From Escherichia coli (GTDB lineage: Bacteria > Pseudomonadota > Gammaproteobacteria > Enterobacterales > Enterobacteriaceae): DNA of 64,000 bases. Positions 12,038 to 12,247 of this stretch are shown here, piece after piece (positions within the stretch are counted from its first letter, which is position 1; each line of letters begins with the position of its first letter). The stretch is from the NCBI RefSeq assembly GCF_024223415.1, contig NZ_CP100500.1; one strand, 5' to 3'. A program made the translations under genes and the position numbers. Under the pieces are notes generated by a model that searched no databases, had not been told where the DNA came from, and was given only the letters and a program-made list of their open reading frames with translations.

Positions 12038-12247
12038 TTAGTTAGAGTTAATTAGCTTATCAATCTCTGTAAGAGGTAAAGTTGTCACCTCTGCAACGTC
12101 TTCCCGAGACATCCCTTTACTTAGAAAACGCTGGGCGAATTCCTGTCTTACCTTCTGGAGTTCCTCTTGATATCCCTTCTGAAATCCCTTCTCTTCAAAC
12201 CACTGCGCCAACGTCTGCCTGGTTTCTCTCCGTGTCTTTATTTCCAT
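12038..12247 (-). CDS. small ORF homologous to the C-terminal module of Rpn proteins (RpnS-like / detached CTD copy)
   Basis: 69 aa MEIKTRRETRQTLAQWFEEKGFQ...GMSREDVAEVTTLPLTEIDKLINSN parallels the last 48 aa of the adjacent rpnC product; own RBS-like AAGGGA upstream of ATG; DNA-level paralogy to 12318-12470. Confidence 0.4.
   Translation of the reverse strand: MEIKTRRETRQTLAQWFEEKGFQKGYQEELQKVRQEFAQRFLSKGMSREDVAEVTTLPLTEIDKLINSN

Follow-up and report, generated by a model that had tools for sequence, protein, structure and literature searches.

We report that the 69-amino-acid (aa) open reading frame (ORF) at 12038-12247 on the minus strand of a 64,000-nucleotide (nt) stretch of Escherichia coli DNA (contig NZ_CP100500.1 of assembly GCF_024223415.1; hereafter the window) is rpnCSs, the stand-alone copy of the intragenic antitoxin RpnCS that lies downstream of rpnC. 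The element was already named by Zhong et al. 2023 (PNAS 120:e2307382120; PMC10400941, Fig. 2I) and is therefore not new; the window carries one allele of it, 69 aa long with three 4-aa units (FQKG-YQEE-LQKV), and we see no difference in kind. What we add is that the repeat length of rpnCSs almost never equals that of the adjacent rpnC. Taking this together with the data on its origin, conservation and exchange, we consider it likely that rpnCSs is a diverged second RpnS copy that is independently translated, is a poor partner of the full-length toxin RpnCL and serves as a spare cassette. Our confidence is high with respect to its identity as rpnCSs and its status as a maintained gene, and moderate with respect to the functional part of this reading.

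Background

According to the main text of Zhong et al. (PMC10400941), Rpn proteins are toxic PD-(D/E)XK nucleases, and RpnS, the C-terminal domain made separately from an internal start, blocks full-length RpnL. The initial annotation of the window, made from the sequence alone, had described toxic Rpn nucleases that are held in check by small proteins produced from the 3' ends of the same genes, in agreement with that paper. The same text describes that the number of 4-aa repeats in the first helix of RpnS varies, that RpnCS carrying one additional KGIE repeat no longer counteracts RpnCL, with the converse likewise (text to Fig. 4D), and that K-12 RpnCS was seen both by ribosome profiling and by sequential peptide affinity (SPA) tagging. 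As to rpnCSs itself, RpnCSs clusters with RpnCS and is on that ground derived from rpnC, 4-aa repeat variation is noted, and two routes of loss are given, deletion or fusion to the rpnC N-domain (PMC10400941). Antitoxin-like and cassette roles are discussed in that paper and in its commentary, which also mentions the second copy (PMC10400984). The main text of PMC10400941 contains neither an assay of RpnCSs expression or activity nor a comparison of its repeat number with that of the neighbour, and in the later literature on RpnC we found nothing further bearing on rpnCSs.

Repeat lengths of rpnCSs and the neighbouring rpnC

The 69-aa product (MEIKTRRETRQTLAQWFEEKGFQKGYQEELQKVRQEFAQRFLSKGMSREDVAEVTTLPLTEIDKLINSN) consists of a leader of its own (MEIKTRRETRQ), the conserved TLAQWFEE block, a 24-aa variable segment that includes the three units named above, and a helix-turn-helix (HTH)-like tail. 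The variable segment was measured between WFEE and KGMSREDV in both copies, and in the window it comprises 16 aa in RpnC (RGRQEERQEFVLRLLN) versus 24 aa in the small ORF. Across 62 two-copy loci the segment ranges from 16 to 56 aa in RpnC and from 20 to 44 aa in the small ORF, and among the 40 distinct haplotype pairs that these loci represent the two lengths are equal in one (locus L060). Alleles vary by whole 4-aa units, e.g. (RQEV)n giving small-ORF variable segments of 24 to 44 aa; the difference in length between the two copies is not a multiple of 4 in 16 of the 40 pairs. Random re-pairing gave a mean of 2.4 matches versus the one observed, hence there is no enrichment for matched lengths, and the lengths of rpnC and rpnCSs correlate with r = -0.37. 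Mismatches were likewise seen in all five additional genomes: ATCC 25922 (44/20), GPEC856 (40/32), SX4 (36/26), SCPM-O-B-8794 (36/32) and AF10 (28/26). Moreover, two E. marmotae strains have RpnC segments of 40 and 56 aa beside the same 24-aa small ORF.

Combined with the published repeat rule, the mismatch in length implies that RpnCSs would not neutralise its neighbour. If the count of 4-aa repeats determines RpnL-RpnS pairing, a protein with 24 rather than 16 aa would be unlikely to act as the main antitoxin of RpnCL, and that job would stay with the intact in-gene RpnCS. As judged from these allele lengths, RpnCSs is probably not the cognate antitoxin of its neighbour.

The opposite possibility is that RpnCSs is a second cognate antitoxin, which would bind the C-terminal domain of RpnCL and block the nuclease, providing extra dosage or a supply uncoupled from translation of the toxin. 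Its homology to RpnCS, its probable place in the same transcription unit with a Shine-Dalgarno (SD) sequence of its own, and the finding that the analogous RpnESs (YpaA) is made in K-12 (main text of PMC10400941) speak for this. Against it stand the different length of helix 1 in 39 of the 40 haplotype pairs and in the window, the 16 pairs whose difference is not a multiple of 4, and the published assay in which one added repeat abolished neutralisation (PMC10400941); in addition, the repeat number of rpnC shifts between the E. marmotae strains while the small ORF stays unchanged, and K-12 RpnE and YpaA are one repeat apart. On balance we regard a cognate role as unlikely.

Organisation of the locus and origin of rpnCSs

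The features of the locus are as follows (coordinates refer to the window).

10285-11079, plus strand: panB (ORF list)
11091-11942, plus strand: panC (ORF list)
11947-11977, plus strand: panC intrinsic terminator hairpin, a 10-nt perfect inverted repeat that bounds the rpnC-rpnCSs unit
12008-12215, minus strand: downstream copy of the tandemly duplicated segment, with its partner at 12293-12463 at the rpnC 3' end
12038-12247, minus strand: rpnCSs, stand-alone RpnS-type small ORF of 69 aa with an ATG start (ORF list)
12248-12315, minus strand: 68-nt spacer from the rpnC stop to the small-ORF start (sequence)
12258-12250, minus strand: SD-like TAAGGGAAC in the spacer (sequence)
12258-12267 and 12283-12292: two occurrences of the 10-nt direct repeat AATTATCTGG in the spacer
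12316-13188, minus strand: rpnC, encoding full-length RpnC (RpnCL) of 290 aa (ORF list)
12316-12468, minus strand: intragenic rpnCS frame, MMTLAQWFEERGRQEERQEF..., 50 aa, the published in-gene antitoxin, at the internal ATGATG after GGAGGGGAG
13462-13842, plus strand: panD (ORF list)

RpnC of the window has an N-terminal PD-(D/E)XK nuclease domain and a C-terminal helix/HTH domain, and matches the Rpn family model TIGR01784 of NCBIfam with 268.8 bits (cutoff 52.1). Its N-domain is nearly identical to that of K-12 RpnC, as is the rpnC sequence from about 12432 upward, and the locus of strain AR_0085, which is 99.9% identical to the window, carries the RefSeq annotation rpnC. Proteins beginning MMTLAQWFEE are predicted by gene callers in other genomes, and the intragenic RpnCS is presumably translated in the window strain too.

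The 69-aa minus-strand ORF had been quoted with a sequence that matches ours exactly, and its described position between the rpnC stop and the panC terminator is borne out, the hairpin at 11947-11977 being the sole terminator-like hairpin in the scanned interval. The gene is not a gene within a gene, since the ORF lies entirely outside rpnC, past its stop, and has its own leader. The direct repeat AATTATCTGG does occur twice in the spacer, at coordinates one base off those given earlier. Likewise, AAGGGA does precede the ATG, slightly closer than the reported 6-8 nt; it occupies 12257-12252, 4 bases from the ATG at 12247-12245, and the spacing becomes about 5-7 nt if counted from its GGG core.

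BLASTP aligned the small ORF to residues 235-290 of the window RpnC with 40 identities in 64 positions (63%; E 1e-21) and a single 8-aa gap in the repeat region, in keeping with the earlier description of a paralog of the RpnC tail. At the DNA level, an ungapped block at 12046-12157 is 85% identical to 12318-12429 and another at 12165-12215 is 80% identical to 12413-12463. A gapped local alignment of 12008-12215 with 12293-12463 gave 70% identity over 208 columns and a score of 189, whereas 200 shuffled controls averaged 24 and did not exceed 41. The match between the two copies is thus far above chance and the copies are clearly diverged, as the block-wise alignment in the initial annotation had indicated. 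From the extent of the gapped alignment, the duplicated unit reaches from just upstream of TLAQWFEE to approximately 25 nt past the stop codon. These comparisons show that rpnCSs originated by tandem duplication of approximately 200-270 bp of the rpnC 3' end, including the surroundings of the internal start, followed by divergence.

In agreement with a C-terminal origin, positions 213-273 of TIGR01784, its C-terminal part, match residues 5-65 of the small ORF (E 2.8e-8). A precomputed match to PF27070 (HTH_Rpn_C), flagged 'weak', is present on many close homologs; a Pfam-A scan of the 69-aa protein returned no match at E <= 0.001, and neither PF27070 nor DUF4351 (PF14261) was listed.

Distribution and annotation

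The interval between the rpnC start and the panC stop measures 976 bp in MG1655, a single-copy locus without rpnCSs, and 1,246 bp in the window, i.e. 270 bp longer, so that the figure of about 270 bp given earlier for the difference from K-12 was correct. For the census we used the spacer plus the leader specific to the small ORF (12205-12315) as query against 5,426 complete E. coli genomes. The rpnCSs unit was found in 1,555 of these, with every match on the chromosome and with the query at least 95% identical in all except two; its suspected strain-specific presence is hence established in a large panel. Since there are 1,558 matching places in the 1,555 genomes, arrays that contain two or more extra copies are very uncommon. 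The order panD-rpnC-small ORF-panC was seen in every sampled locus with enough flank. No second close copy elsewhere in the genome was evident, the window-type small ORF occupying a single place at the sensitivity of megablast.

A protein search identified 138 relatives, nearly all in Escherichia, with E. marmotae and unnamed Escherichia species among the hosts. A scan with the leader pattern over one genome per species matched only the E. coli representative and one contig of an Oscillospiraceae metagenome-assembled genome (MAG); this outcome carries no information on age beyond Escherichia. The MAG contig (L079, CALXDF010000219.1, 'uncultured Oscillospiraceae') has the exact Escherichia rpnCSs leader and is probably a case of contamination or a binning error.

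RefSeq labels of the small ORF vary between 'hypothetical protein', 'RpnC/YadD family protein' and 'transposase', and in AR_0085 and ATCC 25922 the Prokaryotic Genome Annotation Pipeline (PGAP) labels it an 'incomplete; missing N-terminus' pseudogene.

Probable exchange of C-terminal cassettes

The 3' end of K-12 rpnC aligns with the small ORF of the window and not with the tail of the window rpnC, with the breakpoint inside the shared TCTTCAAACCACTGCGCCA block. In the two-copy locus L062 the downstream copy with its flank shares 97.5% identity over 407 nt with the tail and flank of K-12 rpnC. The K-12 RpnC tail is thus a sequence that another strain carries as its downstream cassette, a finding in favour of the spare-cassette reading and of the fusion events noted in PMC10400941. 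Mosaic proteins are found in both directions: P0120 has the small-ORF leader and the window rpnC tail, P0045 the small-ORF leader and a K-12-like tail, and P0096 is an rpnC with a small-ORF-type tail. The initial annotation had offered two roles, an orphan antitoxin-like peptide or a spare cassette for recombinational swapping; the latter gains from the identity between the K-12 tail and the L062 copy, and the former, as a cognate antitoxin, is weakened by the 39 mismatched pairs.

A diverged spare C-terminal cassette would therefore, by the L062/K-12 comparison, be the best-supported role for rpnCSs. Homologous recombination through the TLAQWFEE and GMSREDVAE coding blocks may fuse the cassette to the nuclease domain and yield a K-12-type single-copy allele, and recombination could also swap segments between the two copies; either event would change the toxin-antitoxin specificity in one step.

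One metagenome contig, L008:1-814, has the order spacer-leader-[window rpnC tail]-spacer-leader-[window sORF]-panC, where sORF stands for the small ORF. It looks like a candidate three-copy array, the putative reciprocal product of the unequal crossover that would lead to K-12-type fusions. A search of the complete genomes with this single short contig gave composite alignments only and no contiguous match; with three extra leader places among the 1,555 genomes, three-copy arrays are rare.

Conservation of rpnCSs as a coding gene

Loci for this analysis comprised 61 metagenome loci found by the leader pattern, together with loci from exact-protein look-ups and from complete genomes. The full ORF, including the HTH-like tail, is kept in 72 of the 75 copies that have the stop in view. 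The remaining three are broken and all come from metagenome contigs, two with coverage of approximately 1-2x and the third in a match near the end of the fetched stretch. The 38 distinct intact alleles are all in frame, with lengths of 59-89 aa that form two interleaved series with 4-aa steps. Upstream, ATAATTAAGGGAAC(A/C)T-ATG is present in each of 14 spacer variants (78 loci) with an invariant SD motif, and the conservation of both the start codon and the SD in E. coli extends to E. marmotae.

In the leader and HTH blocks the ratio of nonsynonymous to synonymous polymorphism (pN/pS) was 0.48 and 0.49, respectively, and segregating sites in the HTH block number 11 at third, 8 at first and 2 at second codon positions. 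A stop would result from approximately 5.5% of point mutations, so that the probability of seeing none is 0.19 with 30 segregating sites and 0.06 with 50; for this reason the lack of stops in the 38 alleles is suggestive, not decisive. Overall, these data favour a constrained coding gene, with moderate constraint, over a decaying remnant.

That rpnCSs is nonetheless a non-functional, decaying remnant of a 3'-end duplication is a view that could draw on the PGAP labels in AR_0085 and ATCC 25922, the missing promoter of its own (see below), the pN/pS of about 0.5, the approximately 71% of complete genomes without the gene, and insertions of IS66 and IS3 elements at or in the leader. Set against these are the 72 intact copies with the broken three confined to metagenome contigs, the start codon and SD shared by E. 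coli and E. marmotae, the absence of stops at the probabilities just given and the low variation at second codon positions; furthermore, the K-12 analog ypaA is labelled a pseudogene too, yet it is translated. We judge decay to be highly improbable.

Several individual loci deserve description. In L007, L009 and L048 the nuclease frame of rpnC is broken (225, 142 and 229 codons open, respectively) and the downstream small ORF is intact, from which it follows that the small gene can outlive its toxin partner. The leader region is also a target of insertion sequences. On metagenome contig L056:214-2886 an IS66-family element with ORFs of 216, 115 and 523 aa is situated approximately 19 nt upstream of the small-ORF ATG. 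In strain AF10 (L085:1615-2769) an IS3-family element breaks the leader, and the remaining ORF, which starts MEIQGASLQTLAQ..., is annotated 'transposase'; this leader-interrupted protein, P0081, is on 8 contigs. Finally, the spacer in L014-L017 is 43 nt with a single CC(A/G)GATAATT copy, compared with 68 nt and two copies in the window, and this 25-bp polymorphism at the direct repeat suggests a small duplication or a microhomology-mediated deletion.

Transcription and translation

A promoter scan of 11900-12700 identified no sigma-70-like site within the spacer. TTGTCT-N19-GATAAT, found by eye, was considered as a promoter and is not claimed, because it is weak and its -35 element is degraded in most alleles. 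Given that the scan showed no promoter in the spacer and no terminator between rpnC and rpnCSs, co-transcription with rpnC and rpnCS is likeliest, and rpnCSs would probably be carried both on the rpnC transcript and on the short internal rpnCS transcript. Judging from the conserved ATG and SD, the intact ORF and the synthesis of the analogous RpnESs in K-12, it is probably translated from its own start into a small helical protein.

Predicted structure

An AlphaFold2 (AF2) model of the small protein, computed from a 41-sequence alignment, had a mean predicted local distance difference test (pLDDT) value of 73. It predicts helices at residues 6-20 and 22-43, in effect one long helix with a one-residue break at 21, and at 48-55 and 59-66. 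This layout of a long first helix and two short ones is that reported for RpnA-S, whose crystal structure (PDB 7TH0) is a compact three-helix fold. Foldseek against the PDB gave no significant match, and sequence and profile searches of the PDB with the small protein did not reach 7TH0. By analogy with RpnS proteins, RpnCSs would dimerise through the long first helix.

The profile of the small-ORF family (alignment A1, residues 19-63) resembled the HTH of the Hin/Gin invertases (4M6F) with E 0.048, a likeness that hints that the tail domain may bind DNA. The same A1 profile matched a designed 'CAP repeat' protein (8VD6) with E 1.5e-7, summed over five weak repeat matches.

An insulated regulator, in which RpnCSs homodimers would avoid RpnCL and the HTH-like tail might bind DNA or a phage factor as transcriptional regulator, sensor or decoy within the defence system, would fit the classification of the tail as HTH_Rpn_C, the weak invertase likeness and a length mismatch that argues for self-association over heterodimers, but no RpnS is known to bind DNA, the invertase likeness is below significance, and no conserved operator-like repeat was seen besides the 10-nt spacer repeat, which is absent from some alleles, and we give this idea little credence.

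Assessment of the proposed role

The reading of rpnCSs as an independently translated, poorly matched spare cassette has to be held against a number of observations that weigh the other way. The repeat rule stems from a single experiment in which one repeat was added to the K-12 protein, and it may not extend to diverged alleles; K-12, the strain of the published experiments, is itself without rpnCSs. Matched pairs are fewer than under random pairing, but not significantly so (P = 0.25), and near-identical direct repeats 270 bp apart would be deleted quickly, so that the mismatched pairs may be survivors. As regards constraint, changes in length stay in frame partly for mechanical reasons because the repeat unit is 12 nt, and a pN/pS near 0.5 amounts to moderate constraint only. 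As regards expression and structure, the spacer is without a sigma-70-like site, and 7TH0 ranked fifth in the Foldseek search with a target-normalised TM-score of 0.69 at a non-significant E of 6.5. Finally, for the K-12/L062 pair the sequence alone cannot tell fusion from duplication.

Comparison with other RpnS copies and with orphan cassettes

The closest counterpart is ypaA (rpnESs) of K-12, likewise a stand-alone copy of the C-terminal domain of its neighbour on the same strand shortly past the stop. It too carries a RefSeq pseudogene label and is one 4-aa repeat off the in-gene copy, and its protein was seen by SPA tagging (main text of PMC10400941). At K-12 rpnE-ypaA (L081:2405-3502) the RpnE tail and YpaA differ by exactly one 4-aa unit, QEGMHEQ versus QEGKLEGLHEQ, and are thus out of register in the same way as rpnC and rpnCSs. 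The two genes differ in origin, ypaA having arisen independently and clustering with RpnE, not RpnC (PMC10400941). They also differ in their starts: the start of ypaA (MTIAERL...) corresponds by homology to the internal start, whereas rpnCSs has its novel 11-residue leader and is without the internal Met-Met. The spacer is 12 nt for ypaA versus 68 nt for rpnCSs in the window.

With the intragenic RpnCS, rpnCSs shares the homologous domain, the TLAQWFEE and GMSREDVAE blocks and the hypervariability of the repeats. RpnCS, as a gene within a gene, always has the same sequence and length as the RpnCL tail, in contrast to rpnCSs, which as a cistron of its own is free to diverge and is mismatched in length in nearly every haplotype pair.

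Orphan C-terminal/immunity cassettes of Rhs and CdiA systems are promoter-less, 5'-truncated copies of the C-terminus that lie downstream of the full-length gene and share a junction sequence with it. Recombination can install such an orphan module as the new C-terminus, the swapped module being a toxin domain with a separate immunity gene. The likeness to rpnCSs is one of analogy, in that both are promoter-less, 5'-truncated, variable C-terminal copies with a shared junction sequence; there is no sequence relationship, and in the case of rpnCSs the module swapped would be an oligomerisation/antitoxin domain with a start codon and an SD of its own.

Other matches in the window

Across the 3' end of chromosomal ftsA and the start of ftsZ, at 57336-57425 (minus strand), the Rfam family RF02797 ('Plasmid-encoded Shigella sRNA A'; sRNA, small RNA) matches with 105 bits. 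The ORFs on either side are FtsZ and FtsA, a location that does not seem to fit the name of the family. Three naRNA4 (CssrE) matches in tandem, a match to STnc40 and one to tp2, located at 50908-51216 (minus), 51620-51689 (minus) and 37018-37131 (plus), are in our view common annotations of E. coli repeats and sRNAs with no relation to rpnCSs.

Implications

A further, tentative possibility is that RpnSs copies are held out of register with their neighbour and constitute an expressed library of alternative specificity cassettes rather than antitoxins of the adjacent toxin. The 39 mismatched pairs, the r of -0.37 and the one-repeat difference between K-12 rpnE and ypaA point that way. If true, one recombination event, possibly promoted by the Rpn nuclease, would re-key toxin and antitoxin together, as in a phase-variation-like defence device.

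Antiphage toxin-antitoxin systems of the Rpn type have been recognised as a class only recently; in them the antitoxin is the tail of the toxin and the repeat number sets partner specificity. The main text of the original paper (PMC10400941) left the function of rpnCSs and rpnESs open. If the copies are systematically mismatched, as our survey suggests, they would not simply be extra antitoxin and would instead point to built-in switching of specificity.

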